A stretch of DNA of 55,004 nt. Source: Salinivirgaceae bacterium (GTDB lineage: Bacteria > Bacteroidota > Bacteroidia > Bacteroidales > SZUA-534). This document shows, piece by piece, positions 5,486 to 39,657 of the stretch. The notes beneath the pieces were generated by a model. The model was not told the origin of the DNA. It worked only from the letters and a program-made list of their open reading frames with translations, and searched no databases. The stretch is from positions 1-55,004 of the forward strand of contig JAUXEM010000003.1 of the NCBI GenBank assembly GCA_030620515.1, given 5' to 3'. Within the stretch, counting starts at the first letter, position 1; every line of letters begins with the position of its first letter. Made by a program: the position numbers and the translations under genes.

Positions 5486-7360
5486 ATGTTAAATGAATAT
5501 GATGTTATAGTTGTTGGTGCTGGTCATGCTGGCAGTGAAGCTGCTGCTGCTGCTGCTAAACTAGGATCTTCTACTTTATTAATAACAATGGACATGACTA
5601 AGATTGCACAAATGTCGTGTAATCCTGCAATAGGTGGCATAGCTAAAGGTCAAATAGTAAGAGAAATTGATGCTTTGGGTGGTTATACTGGAATTGCCAC
5701 GGATAAATCAAGCATACAATTTAGAATGCTAAATCGTTCTAAAGGTCCTGCGATGTGGAGTCCACGTGCGCAATGTGATCGAATGGTTTTTTCTCAAGAC
5801 TGGAGAGATCATCTTGAGACTATCGATAATTTAGATATGTTTCAAGACAAAGTTGTTTCACTGGTTTTAAATAATAGCATTGTTACTGGTGTAGTTACTG
5901 AATTAGGTTTTACATTTATTTCCAAGTCGGTAATTTTAACTAACGGCACTTTTCTTAATGGCTTAATGCATATTGGTAGTACCAAAATTAAAGGCGGAAG
6001 AATGGCCGAACCAGATTCCAATGGAATTACAGAGCAACTTTTTGGTGCTGGTTTTACTACTGGTAGAATGAAAACAGGAACTCCTGCACGATTAGATGGA
6101 AGATCTATTAATTTTAGCAAACTGATAGAACAGGAGGGAGATATTAACCCTTCCTTTTTTTCTTACATGAATAGTGACAATACATATGTTGAGCAAAGAT
6201 CTTGCTATATTGCACACACTAATGCATCCGTTCATAAATGCTTAGAGAGGGGTTTTAATGAATCACCTCTTTTCAATGGTTCAATTAAAGGTGTTGGACC
6301 ACGGTATTGTCCAAGTATTGAGGATAAAGTTGTTACCTTTGCTGAGAAAAGTAGCCACCAATTATTTTTAGAACCAGAAGGCTTTACTACTAATGAGTAT
6401 TATATTAATGGATTTTCATCTTCTTTACCTTGGTATATACAGCTTGAAGCGTTGCGTTTAATTCCTGGTTTAGAAAAGGTAAACATTTATCGTCCTGGAT
6501 ACGCAATTGAATACGACTACTTTGACCCAACCCAACTTAATTCATCTTTAGAAACAAAATTGATATCTAATCTTTATTTTGCCGGACAAATTAATGGAAC
6601 AACAGGCTATGAAGAAGCTGCCGCACAAGGTCTAATTGCAGGTATTAATGCTCATTTGAAAATTAACAATAAACCTGAATTTATTTTAAGACGAGATGAA
6701 GCTTACACAGGAGTTTTAATTGACGATTTAATTACAAAGGGAGTTGATGAACCATATCGCATGTTTACAAGTAGGGCAGAATACAGAATATTACTACGCC
6801 AGGATAATGCTGATTTAAGACTAACGGCAAAAGGATTCCACCTTGGCTTGGCAAAAGAAGATCGGTATTTAAGGATGATTGAGAAGAAAAACGCAATTGA
6901 AAATATTATTGAATTCTTCGGCAATACCAGCATAAAGCCCGAGCAAATTAATAGCTATTTAGAAAGTATTAAATCATCTCCGCTTAAACAATCTATAAAA
7001 GTTATTAATTTAATTAGTCGACCAGACGTTTCAATTTTTGGTTTAGCTGAAAATTTTGAACCGCTTTCTGAGCATCTTAAATGTATTATTTCACAAAGAC
7101 ATGATATTCTAGAGGGGGCAGAAATATCAATGAAATATAAAGGATATTTATTGAGAGAGAAACAGATTGCAGAAAAAATAAAGAAACTTGAAAGCGCAAC
7201 GATACCAAAAAATATAGATTACAATAAATTCCTTAGCATATCTACTGAAGCTAGACAAAAACTTTCAAAGATACAACCCCAAACAATAGGGCAGGCTACC
7301 CGCATTCCTGGCATTAGCCCATCAGATATTAATGTTTTATTAGTTAGTTTTGGAAGATAA
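5486..7360 (+). CDS. mnmG: tRNA uridine-5-carboxymethylaminomethyl synthesis enzyme MnmG (GidA)
   Basis: GAGHAG FAD motif, [45 protein letters not shown]. Confidence 0.98.
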
Positions 7361-31216: not shown

Positions 31217-31603
31217 TTATTTGCTTAAAAAGTTATCTATTTTTTCCAATAAAACTTTTCCCATTATTGGCTTTGAAAGATAATCGTCGCAACCAGCACT
31301 CAGAATCTTTTCTTTCTCACCTGCTAATGCATAAGCTGTTTGAGCAATTATTGGTAGCTCAGGTCGAATTTTTTTAATTTCATTCGTAGCTTCGTAACCA
31401 TTCATCTCTGGCATCTTAATATCCATCAATACAAGGTCTATTTCCGCATCATTTTGAACAGCCTCAAGAGCTGTTTTGCCTGTTTCAGCCCATATTAGAA
31501 CAGCGTTTGTTCTTTTTAAAAGCGCCTCAAGAAAAAGATAATTTGTTTTCTCGTCTTCTGCTATAAGTATCTTCTTCCCTGAAAAATCGTAATTATTAAA
31601 CAT
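31217..31603 (-). CDS. Single-domain response regulator (CheY-like receiver)
   Basis: ILIAED, LMDIKMP, TAYA, YLSKP. Confidence 0.93.
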   Translation of the reverse strand: MFNNYDFSGKKILIAEDEKTNYLFLEALLKRTNAVLIWAETGKTALEAVQNDAEIDLVLMDIKMPEMNGYEATNEIKKIRPELPIIAQTAYALAGEKEKILSAGCDDYLSKPIMGKVLLEKIDNFLSK

Positions 31604-31928
31604 AAATGTTTGTTTTAAGATAAAAACAAAATTAAGCTTTTTTTTATCAATTTAACCAAAAGTTAAAGTAATAAAAAAAACGCATTGTATAAATCTACTT
31701 GCCACACTAATTTGTTCGAATGGCGCTTTGCTAATATATAAAGAAAAGAATTATCAGCAATTTTATTCTATTTTTAATTTATAAATATATGCTTTTCTCT
31801 AATACTATACAATAACCAGTAGTATAAATTACCTATTGGATAGTTTCTACATTCCTGTATTTATGTTTATTACACGCTTGTACTAAAAAGTATATGCTGC
31901 TTTATTTGAATATATATACTCCTTTTAT

Positions 31929-31955
31929 TATTTTTGACCAACCGTTCATTCAAAA
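31929..31955 (+). promoter_or_regulatory. -7 promoter element overlapped by a putative TetR operator
   Basis: TATTTTTG (31929-36) overlaps the imperfect palindrome TTTTGAccAACCGTTcatTCAAAA (31932-55), just upstream of the TetR ATG. Confidence 0.6.
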
Positions 31956-31963
31956 TAGAACCA

Positions 31964-32545
31964 ATGCCAAGAACAAAAGAACAATTCAAAGAATTAAGAC
32001 AAGAAAAAATTAACAAGATTAAGCAAGTGGCTATGGAGCTATTTGCTTCTGAAGGGTATATACAAACATCTATTTCAAAAATTGCTAAAGCAGCTAATAT
32101 ATCCAAAGGTTTATTATATAACTATTTTGAAAGTAAAGATGATTTGTTAAAATGCATAGTATCAGAAGGTGTACAAGATGTATTTGAATCGTTCGATATT
32201 GACGGTGATGGACATTTGTCAACTGATGAGTTTGAATATTTTGTTAGACAAAGTTTAAAAAATACGATTGAGAGAAAGGAATTCTATAAGCTGCTATATA
32301 CCATAATGCTGCAACCAAATGTACATGATATAATAGCAAATGTGCAAAATGATATTTCAATTCGCGTTTTAACGGTTGCAAATGAATATTTTCAAACCCG
32401 ATTTGATGATCCGCAAACGGAGTTTCTTCTTTTCTCGTCTATGATGAAAGGTTTAAGCATGCAATATGTTTTTGCAGATGGATATATAACAGACGAGATG
32501 ATGGAAAAATCAATAACAAGAATATTGGATTATTATAGAAAATAG
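31964..32545 (+). CDS. TetR/AcrR-family regulator with an EF-hand-like loop
   Basis: MPRTKEQF start; HTH TSISKIAKAANISKGLLYNYFESKDDL; DIDGDGHLSTDEF loop. Confidence 0.92.
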   Translation: MPRTKEQFKELRQEKINKIKQVAMELFASEGYIQTSISKIAKAANISKGLLYNYFESKDDLLKCIVSEGVQDVFESFDIDGDGHLSTDEFEYFVRQSLKNTIERKEFYKLLYTIMLQPNVHDIIANVQNDISIRVLTVANEYFQTRFDDPQTEFLLFSSMMKGLSMQYVFADGYITDEMMEKSITRILDYYRK

Positions 32546-32563
32546 AATTCAGAAGTTAGTATA
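32536..32563. repeat. Left arm of cassette 1 (AGAA heptamers)
   Basis: tagaaaa tagaatt cagaagt tagtata; contains the TetR TAG stop. Confidence 0.75.
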
Positions 32564-32576
32564 AAATAATGAGATT

Positions 32577-32660
32577 ATGGACAAAGCACAATCATATAAA
32601 GATTTATTGATGTGGCAAAAGGGACACGAACTTGTTTTATAGACATATCAAACTATATAA
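32577..32660 (+). pseudogene. Decayed four-helix-bundle (23S IVP family) gene
   Basis: Translates to MDKAQSYKDLLMWQKGHELVL*TYQTI*, the family's N-terminal YxDLxxWQKxxxL signature with an in-frame stop. Confidence 0.8.
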
Positions 32661-32730
32661 TATTTTTGAATCAATTAATTATGAAATAATAATGCTAAAA
32701 TAATATTATAGAAGAAAGATAGGGTTACCA

Positions 32731-32758
32731 TTCTTAATTCAACTTTCTATTTTCTAAC
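32731..32758. repeat. Right arm of cassette 1 (TTCT heptamers)
   Basis: ttcttaa ttcaact ttctatt ttctaac; 32745-56 is the exact reverse complement of 32536-47. Confidence 0.75.
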
Positions 32759-32774
32759 TTTTAAAAATTTTAAC

Positions 32775-33530
32775 ATGAACCTATTAATTACATCAATTAT
32801 TGCTCTTGCTTTTTCTATATCTACCCAAGCGCAAGATGCTACAGCCATTATTAAAAACGCCGACGATAAACTACAGGGTAATTCTAACAAAAGTTTAATG
32901 GCAATGTCAATTGTTCGTCCTAAATATACTCGAACTATTGAATTTATGAATTGGAGCCTTGGTCGCCATTATTTTATGACTTATGTTACTGCTCCAGCAA
33001 AAGATAAAGGGCAGGTTTTCATGAAGCATAAAACTGATATGTGGAACTTTATGCCTGCAATAAATCGCATGATAAAACTACCTCCAAGCATGATGAGTCA
33101 AGGTTGGATGGGCTCAGATTATTCCAACGATGATTTGGTTAAACAATCGTCTATTGTGGTAGATTATACTCATACACTAATTGGTGATGAGGAAATTGAA
33201 GGACGCATGTGCTTCAAAATAGAACTAATTCCGAACGATAATGCCAATGTAGTTTGGGGTAAAGTTATTTATTGGGTCGATAAGGAACATTCTATTATCC
33301 CGAAAGGTCAGTTTTACGATGAAGAGTTTTATTTAGTACGCACAGAACTAGGACATGACATTAAAAACTTCGATGGTCGCGATTTATTTTCTAAAATGGA
33401 GATTATTCCTGCCGATGAAGATGGAAACAAAACGATAATTGAAATAAAATCAATTGAATTTGATGTGGATATTAAAGAGAGTTTTTTCTCGCAACAAAAC
33501 ATGAAAAGAATTAAATCTGTGAGACTATGA
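32775..33530 (+). CDS. Outer-membrane lipoprotein-sorting (LolA-like) periplasmic protein
   Basis: Signal peptide; PAKDKGQVFM, WMGSDYSNDDL, FFSQQNMK. Confidence 0.85.
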   Translation: MNLLITSIIALAFSISTQAQDATAIIKNADDKLQGNSNKSLMAMSIVRPKYTRTIEFMNWSLGRHYFMTYVTAPAKDKGQVFMKHKTDMWNFMPAINRMIKLPPSMMSQGWMGSDYSNDDLVKQSSIVVDYTHTLIGDEEIEGRMCFKIELIPNDNANVVWGKVIYWVDKEHSIIPKGQFYDEEFYLVRTELGHDIKNFDGRDLFSKMEIIPADEDGNKTIIEIKSIEFDVDIKESFFSQQNMKRIKSVRL

Positions 33531-33683
33531 TTTTGGTTTCAAAATCATATTGCCAAACTGATTATTAGCGGTTGTCGAGGGATCTTATAGATTAGTCCCG
33601 CCTGCCAAGTTCAACATTGGGCATATTCCCCGCACTATTGTGCGCAATGATAATAAAATACTTATCGCAATTTATTTACCTAA

Positions 33684-33699
33684 CTGCCTACAAGGCAGG
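33684..33699. repeat. REP-like CTGCC-n-GGCAGG palindrome
   Basis: CTGCCTACAAGGCAGG; relatives at 24750-66, 51593-608 (inverted) and 51628-42. Confidence 0.55.
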
Positions 33700-33727
33700 C
33701 TAATGTTTTATACTAAAGCTTAATATA

Positions 33728-35143
33728 ATGAACAGAATAATTAAAATGGCATGGCGAAATATCTGGCGAAACAGGCGCCGCTCCCTTATTACAATAGCTT
33801 CTATATTTTTTGCGGTATTCTTTGCTGTCGTAATGCGCTCGATGCAGCTAGGTAGCTATGGTCATATGATAAAACAGACTATCGAGAAGTATTCGGGTTA
33901 TTTACAAGTACAAAATCCTGAGTATTTTGATGAGCCATCATTGGATAATTCTTTAGAATATTCCGATGAGCTAATTCAAACTTTAATTTTAACCGAAGGT
34001 GTGAAAATTGCAGTTCCTCGTATCGAATCTTTTGCGCTTGCCTCAACAGGTCATCAAAGCAAAGGAGTATTGGTTTCTGGCATTGATGTTGAAAAGGAAA
34101 AAATGCTTAGCAATCCTGAGCATATGCTCGTGAATTATAAGCTTACTCCCGCTATTGTTGAAACCATACTTATAGAATCTAATTTTGAAACTAAGCAGCA
34201 AGAGTTTTTAAAGCTATTTGAAAATAGTGTTTATCATGATTTAGATAGATTGGGTTTAGATTTGGCATTAAAACCAGAACAGCTTGAACCTTATCATGCA
34301 CTATTTAATAAATATGCGAAGATTCAAGGAGCTTACCTTAAACCAAACGATGATGGTGTATTAGTTTCTAGCAGGCTTGCTAAATTTTTAAGAACTGAGG
34401 TTGGAGATACGATTACTTTAATTGGTAGTGGTTATCATGGTAATACAGCTGCAGATATTTTCCCAGTACGTGGAATAATTAAAATTCCATCGCCCGATTT
34501 AGATAATAAAATAATATACATGTCGTTGCCTAAAGCGCAAGAGTTTCTAAGCATGCAGAATCGTATTACCGCAGTAGCTATTAATCTTGATAATAGTAAA
34601 GAAATGATACAAATTCAAGAGCAATTACTTTCGACAATTGACCCAACTGAATATACTGTTAAAAATTGGGAAGAGCTTAACCCAGTATTAAAACAGCAGA
34701 TTGAAGGTGACGATGCAAGTGGAAAGATGTTCGTTGGTATTCTATATTTTATTGTGTTTTTTGGAATTATTGGCACAGTAATGATGATGATTGCCGAACG
34801 CAAACGAGAGTTTGGGGTACTTGTAGCTATCGGAATGCGAAAACGAAAGCTAGCTACAATAGTCTTAATTGAAATGTTTCTTATGGGATTTGTTGGCACA
34901 ATTACAGGTATGTTGGCAGCAATGCCACTGGTTATTGGTTTTAATATTAATCCAATAAAAATGACTGGTGAAACAGCTAAAATGTATGAAGATATGGGCT
35001 TTGAGGCTGTTATGCCAACAGCACCAATCGACCATTATTTTACATGGCAAGGCATAATAATTCTTCTAATGGTGATACTAGCTTGCTATATCCCTCTTAA
35101 AAAAATTAGGAAAATGAAAGTTATGGATGCTTTAAAGGCTTAA
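33728..35143 (+). CDS. ABC transporter permease (MacB/FtsX/LolE type)
   Basis: MAWRNIWRNRRRS, large periplasmic domain, ERKREFGVLVAIGM. Confidence 0.92.
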   Translation: MNRIIKMAWRNIWRNRRRSLITIASIFFAVFFAVVMRSMQLGSYGHMIKQTIEKYSGYLQVQNPEYFDEPSLDNSLEYSDELIQTLILTEGVKIAVPRIESFALASTGHQSKGVLVSGIDVEKEKMLSNPEHMLVNYKLTPAIVETILIESNFETKQQEFLKLFENSVYHDLDRLGLDLALKPEQLEPYHALFNKYAKIQGAYLKPNDDGVLVSSRLAKFLRTEVGDTITLIGSGYHGNTAADIFPVRGIIKIPSPDLDNKIIYMSLPKAQEFLSMQNRITAVAINLDNSKEMIQIQEQLLSTIDPTEYTVKNWEELNPVLKQQIEGDDASGKMFVGILYFIVFFGIIGTVMMMIAERKREFGVLVAIGMRKRKLATIVLIEMFLMGFVGTITGMLAAMPLVIGFNINPIKMTGETAKMYEDMGFEAVMPTAPIDHYFTWQGIIILLMVILACYIPLKKIRKMKVMDALKA

Positions 35144-35256
35144 GACTGAAGAAAACAGATTGATGTTGATTGAAAGAGATTGAAAGAGATTGAATGAGAT
35201 TGAGGAAGATTGAAAGAGATTGAAAATAAGATTGAGGTAGGTTGAAATGTGATTGA
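35144..35256. repeat. Left arm of cassette 2 (GATTGA decamer array)
   Basis: GATTGA at 35158, 35168, 35178, 35188, 35198, 35208, 35218 (exact 10-nt period), then 35230, 35240 (GGTTGA) and 35251; GACTGA at 35144, right after the stop. Confidence 0.9.
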
Positions 35257-35281
35257 ATTGTAGTTAATAAAACTTAAAATT

Positions 35282-35653
35282 ATGGAAAATAATAATTGGG
35301 TTGAATACAAGATTTCAATTGGAAATAGATTGAAGGAGTTTGCACTTAAGATTCTGCAACTTTCTGAGATGTTACCAAAAAATGCAAGATCAAATGTCAT
35401 CAACTATCAAATTACTAAATCTGGAACATCAACTTATGCTAATTATAGAGCTTCGCTTAGGGGGCGCTCAAAAAAAGAATTTTTCAGCAAATTATCAATC
35501 ACTGTTGAAGAAGCCGATGAAACCGAAATGTGGCTCGATTTAATTATAAGCTCAAAAATATTAGATAATGATTTTATAAAAGGGCTACATAGCGAAAGTG
35601 TTGAATTGATTAAGATATTAGCTAGCATGAGAAAGAAGTTGAGTGATGATTGA
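35282..35653 (+). CDS. Four-helix-bundle protein (23S rRNA IVP / TIGR02436-like)
   Basis: RLKEFA, QITKSGTSTYANYRA..RGRSKKEFFSKLSI..EEADET.MWL. Confidence 0.92.
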   Translation: MENNNWVEYKISIGNRLKEFALKILQLSEMLPKNARSNVINYQITKSGTSTYANYRASLRGRSKKEFFSKLSITVEEADETEMWLDLIISSKILDNDFIKGLHSESVELIKILASMRKKLSDD

Positions 35654-35757
35654 ATGAGATTGAAGAAGATTGATAAAGAATAAAAATAAAATTACAATCA
35701 ATCTTTTCCTATCAATCTTAATCAATCTGCGAAGCATCAATCTAATTTAAATCAATT
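35648..35757. repeat. Right flank of cassette 2 (three GATTGA units, then a TCAATC array)
   Basis: GATTGA at 35648, 35658, 35668; TCAATC at 35698, 35712, 35722, 35737; TCAATT at 35752. Confidence 0.9.
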
Positions 35758-35807
35758 TGTACTAGACAAAATATAAAAGAAAAAGTAACTAAATTAAACA
35801 CACTAAA

Positions 35808-37235
35808 ATGATAACTTCAATATCCTGGAAAAATGTATGGCGAAATAAGTCACGAAGCTTAATTGTGATAATTGCTGTTACATTAGGAACCATAGCAGGT
35901 GTATTTGTAGCTGGTTTAATGAATGGATGGGTTAATCAGCGCATTAAAGCTGCCATTTATACCGAAGTTGGGCATATAAAAGTTCAAAATCCCGATTTTT
36001 TAGTCAATGAAGAAGCTGCTTACTCCATTTCAAATTTTTTAGAAGTAACAAAATACCTTGACAATTCTACCCACGTTAAAGCGTGGTCAGCACGTAGTAA
36101 AATTATGGGAATGGCATCTACAGCACGTGGAAATGCCGGACTAACATTAAAAGGCATTCACCCTGAGAAAGACAAGCTTGTATCGGATATTTATGCCAAC
36201 TTATTGCCAAATACAGGAAGCTATTTTGAATCAAAATCAAAACAACCACCCGTATTTATAAGCCACAAAACTGCTGAACAATTAAAAATAAAGAATTTTA
36301 GAATTAGAGATGTTACTGTTGATAGTTTAAAAACACTGGATGTGCCTGAAAATGTAATCCTTAAATTAGATACCTTAATTAATACGCGTTTTATTACACA
36401 GAAAAAGTTCGAAGTCGCAATTAAAGAGGTTTGGAATAGTACAGAGATTAAGAGCTATGGTCCAGCATTATTATCAACAGCCGCCTATTTTCACCCTCGT
36501 GCTAAAATTACCTTTAGTTTTACTAAAATAAATGGAGAGCTAGGTTATCAAACTTATCAGGTTTGCGGTGTTTACAAAACATCGAATACCATGTTCGACC
36601 AAAACAGTGCGTTTGTAAAACACTCCGACCTTGCTCCCGCTGCAATGTTAGCCGATAACCAGATTCACGAGATCTCTATTTTACTAAACAGCGAAGAAAA
36701 TATCGCAGGTTTTAAAACCACCTTGCAAACAAAATTCCCTGAAGCGTCTGTTATGGACTGGAAAGAACTTGCCCCAGATGCCGGTATGATGGCAGATTTT
36801 ATGACAATGTACTATTATATAATAATGGGAATAATATTTTTTGCTTTAGCCTTTGGTATAATTAATACTATGTTAATGGCTATATTAGAGCGTATTAAAG
36901 AAATTGGAATGTTAATGGCTATCGGCATGAATCGTATAAAAGTATTTATCATGATTATGCTTGAAACAGTGTTCTTAACCCTTACAGGAAGTTTAATTGG
37001 AATGATACTTGGCGGTTTGCTAATTAAAATCACAGGTGAAACTGGTTTAAATTTCTCGTCAGTTGCTGAAGGTTTCGAAGCTTTTGGATGGTCGTCAGTT
37101 GTGTATCCAACCATTGAAACTTCTTTCTTTTTAGGTGTAATTTTAATGGTTATAGTCATTGCAATTTTATCGTCGATAGTGCCTGCCAGAAAAGCGTTGA
37201 AGATGAAACCAATTGATGCACTGAAGATGGAATAA
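35808..37235 (+). CDS. ABC transporter permease (MacB/FtsX/LolE type), second subunit
   Basis: ISWKNVWRNKSRS, ERIKEIGMLMAIGM, PARKALKMKP. Confidence 0.92.
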   Translation: MITSISWKNVWRNKSRSLIVIIAVTLGTIAGVFVAGLMNGWVNQRIKAAIYTEVGHIKVQNPDFLVNEEAAYSISNFLEVTKYLDNSTHVKAWSARSKIMGMASTARGNAGLTLKGIHPEKDKLVSDIYANLLPNTGSYFESKSKQPPVFISHKTAEQLKIKNFRIRDVTVDSLKTLDVPENVILKLDTLINTRFITQKKFEVAIKEVWNSTEIKSYGPALLSTAAYFHPRAKITFSFTKINGELGYQTYQVCGVYKTSNTMFDQNSAFVKHSDLAPAAMLADNQIHEISILLNSEENIAGFKTTLQTKFPEASVMDWKELAPDAGMMADFMTMYYYIIMGIIFFALAFGIINTMLMAILERIKEIGMLMAIGMNRIKVFIMIMLETVFLTLTGSLIGMILGGLLIKITGETGLNFSSVAEGFEAFGWSSVVYPTIETSFFLGVILMVIVIAILSSIVPARKALKMKPIDALKME

Positions 37236-37236
37236 G

Positions 37237-37264
37237 CCGAGTTTCGGGATTCGTGTTGCGAGTT
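37237..37264. repeat. Left arm of cassette 3 (CGAGTT heptamers)
   Basis: ccgagtt tcgggat tcgtgtt gcgagtt; pairs 10/11 with AACTCGTAACA at 37661-71. Confidence 0.7.
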
Positions 37265-37288
37265 ATAAAAAATGAAAACTTTTGGAAT

Positions 37289-37669
37289 ATGAGCAATTAT
37301 ACTGATTTAGAAATATACAAAATGGCTAATGATTTGGCTATACAGATACACCATTTGTCTTTAAAAATGCCAAAGTATGAATTATATGAACAAGGGAGTC
37401 AAGTTCGCAGGGCTTCCAAAAGCATAAAGGATAATATTGCAGAAGGATATGGAAGGAGAAGATATAGAGCTGAATTTATAAGATTTCTAAATTTTGAACA
37501 TGCATCTTGTGATGAGGTTCATTCACAATTAACAATGATAAATAAGTTTCATATTAACAAAAACCCAGTAGATGAATTAATCTCTAACTATAATATTCTT
37601 TGTGGGAAAATAAACAATTTTATTTCTTATTCAGAAAAAAACAGGAAAACCAATAAATCAAACTCGTAA
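37289..37669 (+). CDS. Four-helix-bundle protein (23S rRNA IVP / TIGR02436-like), second subtype
   Basis: NYTDLEIYK, ELYEQGSQVRRASKSIKDNIAEGYGRR...EFIRFL...ASCDE; ATG 37289 taken as start. Confidence 0.92.
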   Translation: MSNYTDLEIYKMANDLAIQIHHLSLKMPKYELYEQGSQVRRASKSIKDNIAEGYGRRRYRAEFIRFLNFEHASCDEVHSQLTMINKFHINKNPVDELISNYNILCGKINNFISYSEKNRKTNKSNS

Positions 37670-37730
37670 CATAAAAAAAATAGACAAAAGCTAAAAATTA
37701 TACATAGAATTCACAATATAAACAAAAGAT

Positions 37731-38426
37731 ATGAAAGTAATAGAAATTCATAACGTAAATAAAATATACAACGAGTCAGAAGTAAAAGTACATGCAGTAA
37801 ATGGAGTAACTCTCGATTTTGAGGAGGGTGAATTTGCTGCAATCGTTGGGCCATCAGGTTCTGGCAAAACAACCCTTCTGAACTTGATTGGAGGGTTAGA
37901 CAATCCTACATCGGGCGATGTTATGATTGGCGGATCGTTAATGAGTTCGTTGAAAGGCTCGGACCTTACCGATTTTAGAATGCACAACATTGGTTTTGTT
38001 TTTCAGGCTTATAACCTAATTCCTGTTTTAACAGCTCGCGAAAACACCGAATTTGTTATGAGGCTGCAAGGGAAAACAGCTAAAGAATGCAGCAACCGAG
38101 TTGAAGAATTACTTAAAGCTGTAGGTTTAGAAGAACGCATGGAGGCCCGACCATCAAAACTATCAGGCGGACAGCAACAACGTGTTGCAGTTGCTCGCGC
38201 CCTAGCTTCTAAACCAAAATTTGTTTTGGCAGATGAACCAACAGCTAACCTCGACTCAAAATCAACCGAAACTTTGTTAGACATTATGGAGAAGTTGAAC
38301 AAAGAGGAAAATATCACTTTTATTTTTAGTACACATGATGCGCGCGTAGTTAAAAAAGCTCGCCGAGTAATTACCATTGAAGACGGTAAAGTTATTAGCG
38401 ATGAATACAAAAATATAGAAGACTAA
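37731..38426 (+). CDS. ABC transporter ATP-binding protein (LolD/MacB type)
   Basis: GPSGSGKT, LSGGQQQRVAVARAL, ADEPTANLD, STHD. Confidence 0.96.
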   Translation: MKVIEIHNVNKIYNESEVKVHAVNGVTLDFEEGEFAAIVGPSGSGKTTLLNLIGGLDNPTSGDVMIGGSLMSSLKGSDLTDFRMHNIGFVFQAYNLIPVLTARENTEFVMRLQGKTAKECSNRVEELLKAVGLEERMEARPSKLSGGQQQRVAVARALASKPKFVLADEPTANLDSKSTETLLDIMEKLNKEENITFIFSTHDARVVKKARRVITIEDGKVISDEYKNIED

Positions 38427-38502
38427 AGAAATACTTAAAGTGATAAAGTTTAAAGTACTTAATGTTAGTAACATGAATTCATATTTATAGTATATATCAC
38501 AA

Positions 38503-39657
38503 ATGACAAAACATTTATATCTATTAACCTTACTTTTCTGCACAAGTGTTGTATTTGCCCAAGAACAACTTTCTTTTAGCGGATATGTTTCAAACATGGG
38601 ACAAACGGTTGTAGCAAAAGATACCAATGGAGATTACCAAGCGGCTTGGGATTTAATAATTCACAACCGTTTGAATTTGTCATATTATGCCAACGATAAT
38701 TTTACCTTTCATTTACAAGGTCGAAACCAGTTTTTGTGGGGCGAATCTGTAAGTCTAAACGCCGATTATTCTGAAACCTTTGCGCAAGACCGCGGTTGGA
38801 TTGACATGAACTGGAATTGGTTTGTAAACGATAATAATTTCCTAAACACTCAAATTGATCGAGCTTACGTGGAATATGTAAGTGGTAATTTGGAAATGAG
38901 TTTGGGTCGCCAACGAGTAAATTGGGGACGCACTTTTGTGTGGAATCCAAATGATATTTTTAATGCGTTCTCCTACTACGATTTCGATTACATGGAACGC
39001 CCTGGTTCGGATGCATTTCGTGCTCAATACTATTTTGGCATGGCATCGTCTGTTGAAGTAGTTAGCAAAATTGACAGTGCAAATAACTTAACTTTTGCGG
39101 GAATTGGCAAGTTTAATAAATGGGGATACGATTTTCAGGTTTTAGGCGGTTATGTAAATTCACATGACTATGTTGTTGGAGCTGGTTGGGAAGGCAATAT
39201 TAAATCACTGGGTTTTAGAGGTGAGATGAGCTACTATCATTCTGAGAAAAACTTTGCCGATACTACAGGTTCTTTTTTGGCATCATTGGCTGTAGACTAT
39301 TTATTTCCTAAAAGCATACAAGCACAAGTGGAGTTCTTGTATAACGATCCCAAAAATATTCTTGACCTAAATAATGGCTCGGCTTTGTATCAAGCTCCGC
39401 CTGATTCAAAAAGCTTATCGTTTTCTGAATATAACTTTTTTGTAAATATTGTTTGGACAGCTACCCCTATATTAACTATTAATTTAGCCTCAATGTATTA
39501 CACCGATTATAAAGGTTATTTTCTGATGCCCGGCATCGACTTTTCTGTTAGCGAAGATTTATACTTTTCATTAATCTATCAGTACTTCAATTTAGAGGTA
39601 ATGGATCAGCGCTCAGCAACTAATTTGGCCTTTGCTCGACTAAAATGGAATTTCTAG
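38503..39657 (+). CDS. Putative outer-membrane beta-barrel protein
   Basis: Signal peptide, GRQRVNWG...WNPNDIFN, ERPGSDA, C-terminal RLKWNF. Confidence 0.75.
   Translation: MTKHLYLLTLLFCTSVVFAQEQLSFSGYVSNMGQTVVAKDTNGDYQAAWDLIIHNRLNLSYYANDNFTFHLQGRNQFLWGESVSLNADYSETFAQDRGWIDMNWNWFVNDNNFLNTQIDRAYVEYVSGNLEMSLGRQRVNWGRTFVWNPNDIFNAFSYYDFDYMERPGSDAFRAQYYFGMASSVEVVSKIDSANNLTFAGIGKFNKWGYDFQVLGGYVNSHDYVVGAGWEGNIKSLGFRGEMSYYHSEKNFADTTGSFLASLAVDYLFPKSIQAQVEFLYNDPKNILDLNNGSALYQAPPDSKSLSFSEYNFFVNIVWTATPILTINLASMYYTDYKGYFLMPGIDFSVSEDLYFSLIYQYFNLEVMDQRSATNLAFARLKWNF

Follow-up and report, generated by a model that had tools for sequence, protein, structure and literature searches.

The window analysed here, a 55,004-nucleotide stretch of a Salinivirgaceae bacterium contig (JAUXEM010000003.1), contains a TetR–LolA–FtsX–FtsX–ABC operon. 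Three of its spacers are occupied, two by an intact PF05635/TIGR02436 gene each and one by a stub of 21 codons, all in the orientation of the operon. With about an even chance of being correct, our preferred reading assigns all three inserts, including the decayed one, to a widespread class of intervening sequence (IVS)-type cassettes that lie between cistrons, outside rRNA. In each cassette, mirror-image arrays of 7-10-nt repeats flank a PF05635/TIGR02436 gene that has no promoter of its own and encodes a four-helix bundle. ORF-carrying 23S rRNA IVSs have the same build, but these cassettes are lodged in mRNA spacers and not in rRNA helices. No prior description of such cassettes was found in the literature searched. 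The host operon comprises the following genes, all assigned using Pfam:

31934-32545, + strand, TetR_N regulator with an EF-hand pair, operon gene 1
32775-33530, + strand, LolA_like lipoprotein-sorting gene
33728-35143, + strand, FtsX/MacB-type permease 1 (FtsX/MacB_PCD)
35808-37235, + strand, FtsX/MacB-type permease 2 (FtsX/MacB_PCD)
37731-38426, + strand, ABC transporter ATPase (ABC_tran)

A preliminary description of this DNA had reported repeat-bracketed cassettes at three stop codons of the operon, and that observation is largely real. The cassettes and their neighbours all lie on the + strand, and the three left arms are positioned at the upstream stop codon as described. The left arm of cassette 1 overlaps the TetR TAG (32543-32545), that of cassette 2 starts at 35144 directly after the permease 1 TAA (35141-35143), and the left heptamers of cassette 3 start at 37236 directly after the permease 2 TAA (37233-37235). 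The two intact proteins, IVPa and IVPb, are strongly divergent (22% identity), and the nine ORFs scanned (31217-39657) contain no recombinase domain, in line with the inserts having been called transposase-free. The presence of a gene or remnant at each junction holds for the two intact PF05635 genes, whereas the stub is a credible but unproven remnant. Likewise, the claim that each cassette has its own inverted array is strong for cassette 2 and moderate for cassette 1, but the right side of cassette 3 is a single 11-nt match.

Cassette 2 has the most complete anatomy:

35144-35257, + strand, left array of about ten units of period 10 (each GATTGA and a purine-rich spacer of 4 nt; TRF and arm alignment)
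35282-35653, + strand, gene IVPa, 123 aa, PF05635 and TIGR02436, KSGTSxxANYR subfamily (Pfam, NCBIfam)
35639-35679, + strand, second array of direct GATTGA units, overlaps the 3' end of IVPa (TRF and arm alignment)
35694-35758, + strand, right array of inverted TCAATC units with an embedded GCGAAGC (arm alignment and orthologues)

IVPa matches PF05635 with an E-value of 5.9e-14 (52.6 bits, cut-off 33.8). TRF detected 5.8 copies of period 10 at 35168-35225, and direct copies recur at 35639-35679. The arms, with inverted TCAATC units at about 35694-35758, comprise up to 36 nt at 72% complementarity, and the flank score was reached by 16 of 5000 random genome pairs. The GCGAAGC element of the right array (35729-35735) is kept in IVPa orthologues, and the second GATTGA array is able to pair locally with the right array across a 22-nt loop.

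Cassette 1 carries only the stub:

32535-32562, + strand, left arm of heptamer-like TAGAAAA/TAGAATT/CAGAAGT units (complementary to 32730-32756)
32577-32642, + strand, putative PF05635-type gene remnant of 21 codons, limited to the N-terminal helix (blastp-short, hhalign)
32730-32765, + strand, right arm of TTCT units, its end 10 nt upstream of the LolA-like start (arm complementarity)

The arms (32536-32562 and 32730-32756) are complementary over 27 nt at 74%, or over 20 nt at 85%, and the AGAA heptamers gave no TRF call at score 30. The flank score of 25 was judged through the copy C111, whose score is the same and was attained by 29 of the 5000 random pairs; this background fits the stub flanks only roughly because its pairs are spaced 360 nt apart for full-length genes. 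The best blastp-short matches of the stub are the N-termini of PF05635 family members (26.5 bits, equalled by none of 200 shuffled stubs), and hhalign sets it on helix 1 with P 0.006, yet a probability of only 6%. The ORF is thus a credible, though not proven, candidate remnant of a PF05635-type gene. Downstream of it the remainder of the gene is deleted, with AT-rich sequence in its place.

Cassette 3 is eroded on the right:

37236-37265, + strand, left array of four CNNGTTN heptamers (CGAGTTT, CGGGATT, CGTGTTG, CGAGTTA; orthologues)
37289-37669, + strand, gene IVPb, 126 aa, PF05635 and TIGR02436, SxxDNIAEG subfamily (Pfam, NCBIfam)
37661-37671, + strand, eroded right arm of one unit (AACTCGTAACA) overlapping the stop codon (complementary to 37254-37264)

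IVPb matches PF05635 with an E-value of 4.9e-24. Its flank score is not significant, having been reached by 4462 of 5000 random pairs, and the right side offers only the match of 37254-37264 to 37661-37671 (91%). Both IVPb orthologues carry four homologous left heptamers and right arms of 4 and 11 units, and because of these full inverted arrays cassette 3 is read as an array.

Family membership of the cassette proteins is backed by matches to the structures 2rld (E 1.5e-29) and 2gsc (E 5.7e-23). Each PDB deposition of the solved relatives contains five chains of identical sequence, and a Xanthomonas relative has been cited as a homopentameric toroid (PMC4990558). The genome contains 15 PF05635 matches, and in all 14 copies with upstream sequence the upstream ORF is co-oriented and ends 31-164 nt before the gene. 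When the flanks of these genes were tested, 11 of 14 copies beat at least 98% of random pairs: eight had an inverted-flank score reached by at most 62 of 5000 pairs and three more a score reached by 100 of 5000. Another genus has scores of at least 28 at 15 of its 19 PF05635 genes. Elsewhere, in more than ten phyla, 49 of 75 testable loci had scores reached by none of 200 shuffles (the other 26 failed to beat every shuffle), and 72% exceeded the 95th percentile of 278 within-locus controls; annotated examples include Nostoc punctiforme and Planktothrix plasmids. The combination of a PF05635 gene with inverted arrays is thus general across phyla.

The arm motif follows the protein clade: labels change 26 times, compared with 50.9 times on average after shuffling (none of 200 shuffles as low), and a Mantel test agrees (r 0.156, 5 of 2000 permutations). 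The AAAGT arm class corresponds to a single protein clade across four phyla. The paralogues C82 and C84, located at different loci, have the common arm motif GAGTG(A/C)GCTAAAGT, which their clade also carries in Planctomycetota, Desulfobacterota and Myxococcota. These comparisons indicate that arm motif and protein clade are co-inherited, with a unit period that differs between clades from 7 to 10 nt.

Comparison of the operon across relatives revealed both empty and filled junctions. The junction between the two permeases is filled in two of 12 relatives, holds a gene-less arm hairpin in one and is short in nine; the junction before the ATPase is filled in two of 12, and in another genus a junction occurs in filled, 3'-stub and other states. 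In two other genera the corresponding junctions are filled with orthologues of IVPa (82% and 74% identity) and IVPb (61% and 59%), therefore the cassettes of this operon were inherited and not newly inserted. Independent acquisition, as originally proposed, could apply to the deep past only. The cassette genes have dN/dS values of 0.06-0.15, indicating purifying selection. IVPa orthologues retain the GATTGA units despite saturated dS, and between IVPb orthologues the arm sequences differ while complementarity stays. One metagenome contig has an extra single 10-nt unit after 35195. Judged from these alignments, the cassettes have resided in the operon for a long time with repeated loss, and their arrays grow and shrink by whole units. 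No near-identical copies at different sites were seen that would back current mobility of the proposed mobile element, the 13 aligned paralogues of this genome being 17-44% identical to IVPa.

We infer the mechanism and mobility of the cassettes as follows. Transcription would occur by read-through from the operon promoter, and the arrays would pair in the transcript to form an imperfect 15-42-bp stem with its base at the stop codon upstream and close to the start codon downstream. This would loop the gene out, and the stem would serve as a substrate for RNase III, by analogy with rRNA IVSs; together, looping-out and cutting would account for the operon tolerating such an insert. The toroidal protein (pentameric in solved relatives) probably binds its own repeat arrays, and spread to new sites would be rare. 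Counting left-right pairs in the minimum free energy fold of the whole-cassette RNA, a long-range stem of 15-42 bp was predicted in 13 of 14 cassettes. The earlier suggestion that the arms loop the gene out in mRNA agrees with the long-range stems predicted for cassettes 1 (22 bp) and 2 (42 bp); for cassette 3 only 6 bp are predicted. Arm mismatches show no G·U bias (229 mismatched arm columns at 54 loci; 45 G·U-compatible in the sense strand versus 41 A·C, p 0.75), hence RNA-level selection is unsupported. Nor does the stability of the arm duplexes favour the sense strand (26 versus 22 loci, p 0.23). Arm pairing in the mRNA is therefore physically likely, but carries no RNA-specific selection signal.

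This result bears on an alternative that we regard as unlikely, though the most serious of those considered: a DNA-level element, in which the inverted arrays are element ends, either stacked sites for the encoded protein or DNA hairpins or cruciforms, and RNA pairing is a by-product. The arrays would then serve excision, integration or gene conversion by host enzymes; stacked sites would resemble heptad operators or the repeats found subterminally in some transposons. Besides the missing G·U bias and the equal stability of both strands, most arm mismatches (143 of 229) are transversions at degenerate unit positions, the motif is conserved where synonymous sites are saturated, and the AAAGT arms travel with their gene across phyla. 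Mirror-register identity (0.857) exceeds that within arms (0.774 and 0.798), as expected under concerted evolution of both ends, and the five-chain relatives and the toroidal Xanthomonas relative would suit such sites; Avd binds nucleic acids. However, the ORF scan found no recombinase in or near the cassettes, the copies have no common conserved termini, recent duplicates are absent from this genome, and no target-site duplication is readable from filled and empty sites. Moreover, the left arm has more G than C at 50 of 54 cassette loci (50 versus 2), a polarity that a symmetric DNA site would not need, and a unit period that ranges between 7 and 10 nt among clades fits poorly with a single, fixed protein-DNA geometry.

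Somewhat less probable again is that the arrays came first, as a general, fast-evolving intergenic feature whose hairpins were a target in which genes landed or survived, as IVSs sit in rRNA helix loops. Such arrays would be akin to TAACTGA repeats and to the cyanobacterial STRR, which are intergenic arrays of tandem 7-nt repeats. This genome has 528 arrays of period 6-11, of which 247 are intergenic and period 7 is the commonest (104), and only ten of the 247 have a PF05635 gene within 200 nt. There are also four gene-less inverted array pairs (loops of 8-182 nt) and solo hairpins, and a relative has many one-sided arrays of one heptamer. AATG arms flank two unrelated protein clades, and many AATG arrays occur in genomes lacking the matching clade; one relative, whose genome is only 70% complete, has 353 AATG-array windows and no PF05635 match. 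Orphan arrays also abut stop codons (35 of 117 between co-oriented genes begin within 10 nt of one); the arrays as a class are not specific to the gene, a point that also weighs against the preferred reading. Orphan heptamer arrays were reported in Beggiatoaceae, cyanobacteria, Bacteroidetes and Geobacter (PMC4679880, PMC2700814). A host-derived target, however, leaves unexplained the C82/C84 motif at different loci and in other phyla, orphan arrays lack the polarity of cassette arms (57 versus 46), and the array-less avd of a diversity-generating retroelement (DGR), a single case, suggests that the association is specific to free-standing genes.

It is improbable, more so than either of these, that the cassettes are domesticated regulatory modules, in which an RNA-binding protein on its own 5' array competes with arm pairing and thereby adjusts its own production as well as the coupling or stoichiometry of the cistrons on either side. 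The strong purifying selection, the greater conservation of IVPa compared to the flanking permeases (60-71%), the G-rich, C-poor array 5' of the start codon and the location of the stem base would fit, as would alternative pairing of the cassette 2 right array with the near or far GATTGA array, also present at the Planktothrix locus. In contrast, presence is patchy with frequent loss among close relatives having the same operon, host genes are unrelated between loci, protein clade showed no correlation with dispersed arrays of its motif, and the G·U signal is absent. An artefact of chance, AT-rich spacer composition or assembly has a negligible probability. A crude duplex-energy statistic failed to separate most loci from background, cassette 3 is not significant by itself, and source-metagenome contigs break at arrays; but the alignment statistics (5000 genome pairs, 200-300 shuffles per locus, 278 within-locus controls), recurrence in finished, annotated replicons and conservation of arrays in orthologues from other assemblies contradict it, and as far as these controls allow it is already refuted.

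The comparison with rRNA IVSs proposed earlier suits the preferred IVS-type cassettes well. In Coxiella, the IVS is described as cut by RNase III and as closed by a terminal stem of 28 bp, with tandem heptamers, variable between strains, on the 5' side of its ORF (PMC4990558). 23S rRNA IVSs of Coxiella, Leptospira and others likewise encode the PF05635 family ('S23p') in an ORF enclosed by stem-forming terminal inverted repeats, have 5' tandem heptamers in strain-variable number, lack a recombinase and occur in ORF-less and decaying versions (PMC4990558). In contrast to them, the cassettes occupy intercistronic mRNA spacers from the stop codon and not rRNA helix loops, have overtly periodic arms of 7-10-nt units on both sides, and have stems that are putative RNase III substrates, whereas cleavage was shown for IVSs. 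The cassette genes are under purifying selection, while the Coxiella ORF has been reported as decaying (PMC4990558). The orphan heptamer arrays (TAACTGA and Geobacter heptanucleotide elements) share with the arms tandem 7-nt spacer units, frequent overlap with the upstream stop, variable number and patchy distribution across phyla, but as described in those reports they are one-sided direct repeats without a gene, unlike inverted pairs around one gene family (PMC4679880, PMC2700814). The main text of PMC4679880 contains no 'Four helix', 'S23' or 'intervening sequence', and that of PMC2700814 no 'four-helix' or 'S23'.

Integron cassettes, too, are small genes that lack promoters, share one orientation and sit in transcribed arrays, and their inverted repeats keep their structure while the sequence varies. 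MITEs likewise have gene-less hairpin derivatives. Here, however, inverted repeats bracket the gene in place of one 3' attC, the termini differ between copies unlike those of MITE/TIR elements, the nine ORFs scanned include neither an integrase nor a transposase, and no target-site duplication was identified between filled and empty sites. The DGR protein Avd belongs to a homologous four-helix-bundle fold family, and PF05635 has been described as Avd-like (PMC10053308). The genes of the window have no adjoining reverse transcriptase or template/variable repeat, and the single DGR of this genome, on another contig, has an avd (C289, with the reverse transcriptase 660 nt downstream) without inverted arrays, its flank score being reached by 2812 of 5000 random pairs. 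One paralogue weakly matches the NCBIfam model DivGenRetAVD (E 5.5e-6, below the cut-off).

The single row of co-oriented genes at 31934-38426 begins with a TetR_N regulator, followed by a LolA_like protein, two FtsX/MacB-type permeases (Perm1 and Perm2) and an ABC ATPase, and three of the spacers in this ABC-export operon are unusually long. Two of them contain a gene matching PF05635 (IVPa and IVPb) and the third a short ORF. The three repeat-bracketed units are referred to here as cassettes 1-3.

Features of the ABC-export operon, in window coordinates
31934-32545, co-oriented: TetR_N regulator with an EF-hand pair (Pfam), first in the row
32577-32642, co-oriented: stub ORF of cassette 1, 21 codons, TetR-LolA spacer
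35282-35653, co-oriented: IVPa (cassette 2), 123 aa, Perm1-Perm2 spacer, PF05635 and TIGR02436
35729-35735: GCGAAGC-type insert in the right arm of cassette 2
37289-37669, co-oriented: IVPb (cassette 3), 126 aa, Perm2-ATPase spacer, PF05635 and TIGR02436

The inverted arrays of cassette 2 are unambiguous. About ten GATTGA units with a period of 10 (TRF) occupy 35144-35257, directly 3' of the Perm1 TAA, and inverted TCAATC units lie at approximately 35694-35758, giving an inverted-flank score reached by just 16 of 5000 random genome pairs. Extra direct GATTGA units (35639-35679) overlap the 3' end of the IVPa ORF and are separated from the inverted units by a 22-nt loop, so the right array has two possible pairing partners, these nearby units and the distant left array. 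The arms of cassette 1 (20-27 nt, 74-85% complementarity) have a score of 25, a value reached by 29 of 5000 random pairs in a background spaced for full-length genes rather than for a stub. In cassette 3, four CNNGTTN heptamers stand directly 3' of the stop codon on the left, and the right side has one 11-nt match overlapping the stop codon of IVPb itself; the flank score of this cassette alone was not significant against 5000 random genome pairs. Thus, a preliminary description of three genes or remnants, each bracketed by its own inverted array, holds for cassettes 1 and 2 and by half for cassette 3, which has the left heptamers but no full right array. All three left arms do start at or over the upstream stop codon, as that description stated. 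The top matches of the 21-codon ORF of cassette 1 are the N-termini of family members, and none of 200 shuffled stubs scored as high. Hhalign placed it on the first helix (P 0.006) with a low probability because the stub is so short, and we read it as the likely remnant of an internal deletion in a family gene.

Several other features of the operon were observed. Its regulator contains EF-hand_7 (E 4e-8), a Ca-binding module unusual in a TetR-type repressor. The LolA-Perm1 spacer (33531-33727, 197 nt) has inverted segments (cccgcctgccaag ... ctgcctacaaggcaggc) that differ from the AT-rich arrays in being rich in GC and are probably another small repeat element; in the relatives L014, L025 and L016 this junction is 544, 286 and 230 nt long, respectively, with the family gene absent. 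The last gene of the row (38503-39657, 384 aa) has no Pfam match and is kept right 3' of the ATPase gene with 47-66% identity in 11 of 12 relatives, these 11 being the fetched stretches that reach this position (the L014 contig ends before it).

IVPa and IVPb score 52.6 and 85 bits against PF05635 (cut-off 33.8) and 73.4 and 90.1 bits against TIGR02436, "four helix bundle protein" (cut-off 24). The two proteins share 22% identity, in agreement with the high divergence initially noted between them. A profile of 13 paralogues matches 2rld (E 1.5e-29) and 2gsc (E 5.7e-23), each entry with five chains, so that the window proteins are related at the sequence level to the solved four-helix-bundle pentamers 2GSC and 2RLD. 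The conserved motif of the family is quoted as GxxRxxxSxxxNxxE in PMC3936711. The Q, S, N and E residues are invariant across all 13 paralogues, and the motif region reads RRASKSIKDNIAEG in IVPb and TKSGTSTYANYRAS in IVPa, where K replaces R and the last motif position is without E. PF05635/TIGR02436 proteins are present in 30 of 33 genomes of the bacterial family, with 0-15 copies per genome, and are spread over many phyla. To our knowledge, no function has been assigned to them since rRNA intervening sequences (IVSs) were described. Defence models (PADLOC) gave no families for four proteins scanned, a phage collection had no match for the one cassette protein queried, and recombinase domains were absent from the nine ORFs scanned at the locus, consistent with the proposed transposase-free nature of the cassettes.

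The same genome contains 15 PF05635 matches. A co-oriented ORF ends 31-164 nt upstream of all 14 copies with upstream sequence, another lies downstream of 13 of the 15, and the arm sequence differs from copy to copy. Testing their flanks, a check suggested with the preliminary description, produced inverted scores reached by no more than 100 of 5000 random pairs at 11 of 14 loci (never at four, by at most 62 at four and by 100 at three); the scores of cassette 3 and of the copies on contigs C284 and C289 were not separated from the random pairs. Local alignment was used for scoring instead of the duplex energy of 150-nt flanks, which was below the 1st percentile of 1500 random pairs in just 4 of 14 loci and is an unsuitable statistic because coding background, with its higher GC content, pairs readily.

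Species-representative genomes scanned with a subfamily pattern yielded 80 loci, which belong to Bacteroidota, Planctomycetota, Verrucomicrobiota, Acidobacteriota, Desulfobacterota, Cyanobacteriota, Patescibacteria and others. Among the 75 with sufficient flank, the inverted score was matched by none of 200 shuffles in 49, and 72% were above the 95th percentile of 278 within-locus controls. A period of 7 predominates, and certain clades have 8, 9 or 10. Scores of at least 28 were obtained for 15 of 19 genes in another genus of the same family. On the Nostoc punctiforme plasmid pNPUN01 the gene is framed by GTCGGAG/GTCGGAA units and their inverse, and a Planktothrix plasmid has complete array hairpins on either side of a copy between a DISARM gene and an MmeI-type gene. 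The number of units per arm varies from 1 to approximately 11 with a period of 7-10, which gives no support to the idea of five units wrapped around a pentameric ring.

The Nostoc cassette (L151) adjoins TnsA and XisH/XisI genes, and that of Planktothrix agardhii plasmid p1 (L152) lies between drmD of DISARM and the MmeI-type enzyme; both are mobile or defence contexts. The family has also been found in cas loci, according to the accessible text of PMC3936711. ABC-exporter operons house 4 of the 14 free-standing copies of the genome (both window copies, C82 and C312a; contigs C82, C312 and C164), and IVPa, C82 and C312a are each flanked by a pair of paralogous permease genes (FtsX or ABC-2 type). 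In several relatives, two cassettes stand 1-6 kb apart on one contig. Some operons appear to be preferred homes of cassettes.

Comparison of the operon across relatives, also suggested at the outset, revealed filled, empty and gene-less junctions among the 12 of 32 other genomes of the family in which it was found. At the Perm1-Perm2 junction, two genomes of two other genera carry an IVPa orthologue (82% and 74% identical) with GATTGA units in common and different unit numbers, one has a 104-nt hairpin of both arms with the gene missing, and nine have a spacer of 41-150 nt. At the Perm2-ATPase junction, two genomes carry an IVPb orthologue (61% and 59%), two an unrelated insert, and eight have 47-73 nt. 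A six-frame profile search of these operon loci found no additional family member. The filled, gene-less and short states indicate that the cassettes were inherited and repeatedly lost, and the origin of the three from different clades points to separate acquisitions long ago. Independent acquisition, as first proposed, is thus upheld by the separate clades, but it was not recent. The unrelated insert of 550-640 nt that replaces the IVPb cassette in L014 (5928-6571) and L016 codes for the C-terminal portion of what would be a larger winged-helix/ATPase-like protein, and it holds an internal 9-nt tandem (ACTACCCAGAAA-type), indicating that this spacer tolerates other inserts too.

A junction in another genus shows similar states. 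In one filled state, the arrays differ by whole units among genomes approximately 96% identical; in another, the gene is only 63-66% identical between flanks of 85-93% identity; a 3' stub with the right arm and unrelated inserts were also seen. In two of these genomes, the upstream ORF runs into the array, which provides the stop codon. In alignments across phyla, the upstream open frame ends a median of 6 nt after the left arm has started, and the distance is within 15 nt in 23 of 31. Unit numbers vary between orthologous cassettes, and in one metagenome contig the left array of cassette 2 is longer by one 10-nt unit (a single contig with a depth of about 5). In the parts of the window covered by three DNA contig sets, no joint removing a cassette was present; a lone 4812-nt skip in a contig alignment was disregarded, as one side comprised just 20 letters.

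The cassette genes have dN/dS values of 0.06-0.15 wherever dS is estimable, and IVPa is conserved above the flanking permeases. Between IVPa orthologues, synonymous sites are saturated and the GATTGA unit is unchanged, so the unit itself is constrained. The arms of IVPb orthologues vary at the two variable positions of CNNGTTN, with the matching complements in their right arms. Over 43 loci, arm identity in the mirror register was 0.857, compared to 0.774 and 0.798 between neighbouring units within arms (p 2e-4), a value favoured by the choice of the best register. On a protein tree (a quick tree from few columns), arm-motif classes required 26 changes against a shuffled mean of 50.9, and none of 200 shuffles was as low. 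The ten AAAGT-type loci form one short-branched clade (support 94) spanning Bacteroidota, Myxococcota, Thermodesulfobacteriota and Planctomycetota, and the ATCGG and CAGAA classes are one clade each. Protein and arm 6-mer similarity are correlated (Mantel r 0.156, 5 of 2000 permutations), and two paralogues at separate places in the genome have an arm motif in common. AATG-type arms flank two unrelated protein clades, which counts against a strict one-to-one rule of motif and clade. The arms belong, at least partly, to the cassette unit. A trans-regulon, in which a protein clade would govern dispersed arrays of its own motif, is not supported, as AATG-array counts per genome do not track the presence of the matching clade.

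A further conserved element, GCGAAGC (or GCAAAGC / GCCAAAGGC), is kept inside the right TCAATC array of all IVPa-type loci, including the right arms in L014, L025 and L016, and in a gene-less copy on contig C23 of the same genome (G000 C23:1840-1910). GCGAAGC is a very stable DNA/RNA mini-hairpin sequence.

When each cassette RNA was folded in full, from the upstream stop to the next start, the MFE structure joined the left and right sides by a long-range stem of 15-42 bp in 13 of 14 cases, with 22, 42 and 6 long-range pairs in cassettes 1, 2 and 3, respectively. Physically, the predicted stems are comparable to that of the Coxiella IVS, which is 28 bp long and is cut by RNase III at the first heptamer according to the accessible text of PMC4990558. 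The earlier proposal that the arms pair in the mRNA and loop out the gene is consistent with the predicted stems of cassettes 1 and 2, and less so with the six pairs of cassette 3. The G·U signature of a selected RNA helix is nevertheless absent: the 229 mismatched columns of 54 loci include 45 G·U-compatible (sense) vs 41 A·C, and duplex energy did not differ between sense and antisense. There is, however, a strong polarity: in 50 of 54 loci, the sense strand of the arm 5' of the gene is rich in G and poor in C, a bias not shared by orphan arrays (57 vs 46). Arrays supplying stops in all three frames were rejected as the main reason for this polarity because the effect is weak, being seen in 17 of 54 left arms, whereas shuffles predict 10 and the right arms give 9. 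Judging from the predicted folds, arm pairing in the transcript very likely happens, and the conserved traits are the unit sequence and its mirror relation. The anatomy, generality, age and selection of the cassettes are well supported. Their most economical reading would combine a transcript-level stem, a cut by RNase III and a protein binding its own repeats, and we give it roughly an even chance. The conserved mirror relation together with the missing G·U signature leaves some room for arms that serve as ends at the DNA level, which we consider unlikely, and a reading of the cassette as a domesticated regulator is rated as improbable.

Arrays also occur without the gene. The genome has 528 arrays of period 6-11, including 247 intergenic ones, most frequently of period 7 (104), and only 10 of these 247 are within 200 nt of a family gene. 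Among orphan arrays between co-oriented genes, 35 of 117 begin within 10 nt of the upstream stop. A genome-wide palindrome scan produced mostly terminator-like hairpins; 15 were left after a periodicity filter and seven were inspected, of which two (C23 and C7) carry unit types of cassette arms from this genome and two more abut stop codons. One gene-less hairpin combines GATTGA 10-mers with a GC-AAAG-GC insert resembling that in the right arm of cassette 2, and another has the CTAGA units of cassette C67. One relative has many one-sided arrays of the heptamer framing one of its own cassettes. The relative G005 has very long one-sided AATGNNNN octamer arrays of the AATG type (353 four-unit windows in 2.8 Mb), which start directly 3' of stop codons (e.g. 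L155 350-480, L156 300-400) and are each followed by a conserved dispersed repeat of approximately 50 nt; no PF05635 gene was found in this assembly, which is 70% complete. Published cases of orphan heptamer arrays come from Beggiatoaceae, cyanobacteria, Bacteroidetes and Geobacter (accessible text of PMC4679880 and PMC2700814). The main text of the Beggiatoaceae paper (PMC4679880) contains no "four helix", "S23" or "intervening sequence", that of the Geobacter paper (PMC2700814) no "four-helix" or "S23", and the literature searched, seen in part, held no link between heptamer arrays and the PF05635 family. Gene-less arrays were either shed by cassettes or represent an independent genomic habit to which the genes have adapted their place. 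We keep the latter order of events, with the arrays first, as a distinctly unlikely rival.

Among known systems, the ORF-carrying 23S rRNA IVS is closest, with the protein family, a terminal stem, variable heptamers and the lack of a recombinase in common. Like these IVSs, the cassettes have terminal inverted repeats enclosing the ORF in their predicted stems (weak in cassette 3, with six pairs) and tandem repeats of variable number 5' of the ORF. However, all three units sit between protein-coding operon genes and not in an rRNA helix, so they do not count as rRNA IVSs but as an element of this kind in a different niche. No description of PF05635 proteins as repeat-bracketed operon cassettes outside rRNA was present in the literature searched, which covered few subscription journals and no supplements. 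In a broader and decidedly tentative scheme, which we regard as improbable in full, free-standing PF05635 genes and their mirror arrays would be ancient, pan-bacterial, recombinase-free "hairpin cassettes", whose ring-shaped protein recognises clade-specific units. They would colonise transcribed untranslated niches (rRNA helix loops and stop-codon operon spacers), shed gene-less hairpins and one-sided arrays, and be the source of ORF-less rRNA IVSs and of the heptamer arrays between genes that have long lacked an explanation (STRR, TAACTGA and others).

The pattern is general and gives a large orphan family a concrete partner. If free-standing members are nearly always cassette cargo, the rRNA IVS is one particular form of a more general element and the family gains a testable partner in its own repeat arrays. 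Operon spacers would then harbour unnoticed structured inserts with a possible role in cutting or reshaping polycistronic mRNAs, and the heptamer arrays of cyanobacteria, Beggiatoaceae and Bacteroidota would gain a candidate link. Annotated copies in cultured carriers, for instance Planktothrix agardhii and, on plasmid pNPUN01, Nostoc punctiforme PCC 73102, make the question directly testable.

Other known systems differ more. Transposons and MITEs have conserved termini, whereas each cassette copy has its own arm sequence, and no target-site duplication was recognisable between filled and empty junctions. Integron cassettes have a single attC 3' of the gene and go with an integron integrase and attI; here, repeats bracket the gene. 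In contrast to diversity-generating retroelements (DGRs), the window genes have no adjacent reverse transcriptase or template/variable repeats, with RVT_1 matches only on contigs C245 and C289. The NCBIfam Avd model matches neither window protein, just the paralogue on C67, below the cut-off. On C289, a weak PF05635 match 660 nt upstream of a reverse transcriptase, between apparent variable and template repeats, is therefore a true DGR avd, and this single case has no inverted arms. The surrounding retroelement (C289:4700-6700, outside the window) looks complete, with the 3' end of the target gene carrying the variable repeat, avd, a near-identical adenine-rich template repeat and RVT_1 (5933-6628) in this order.
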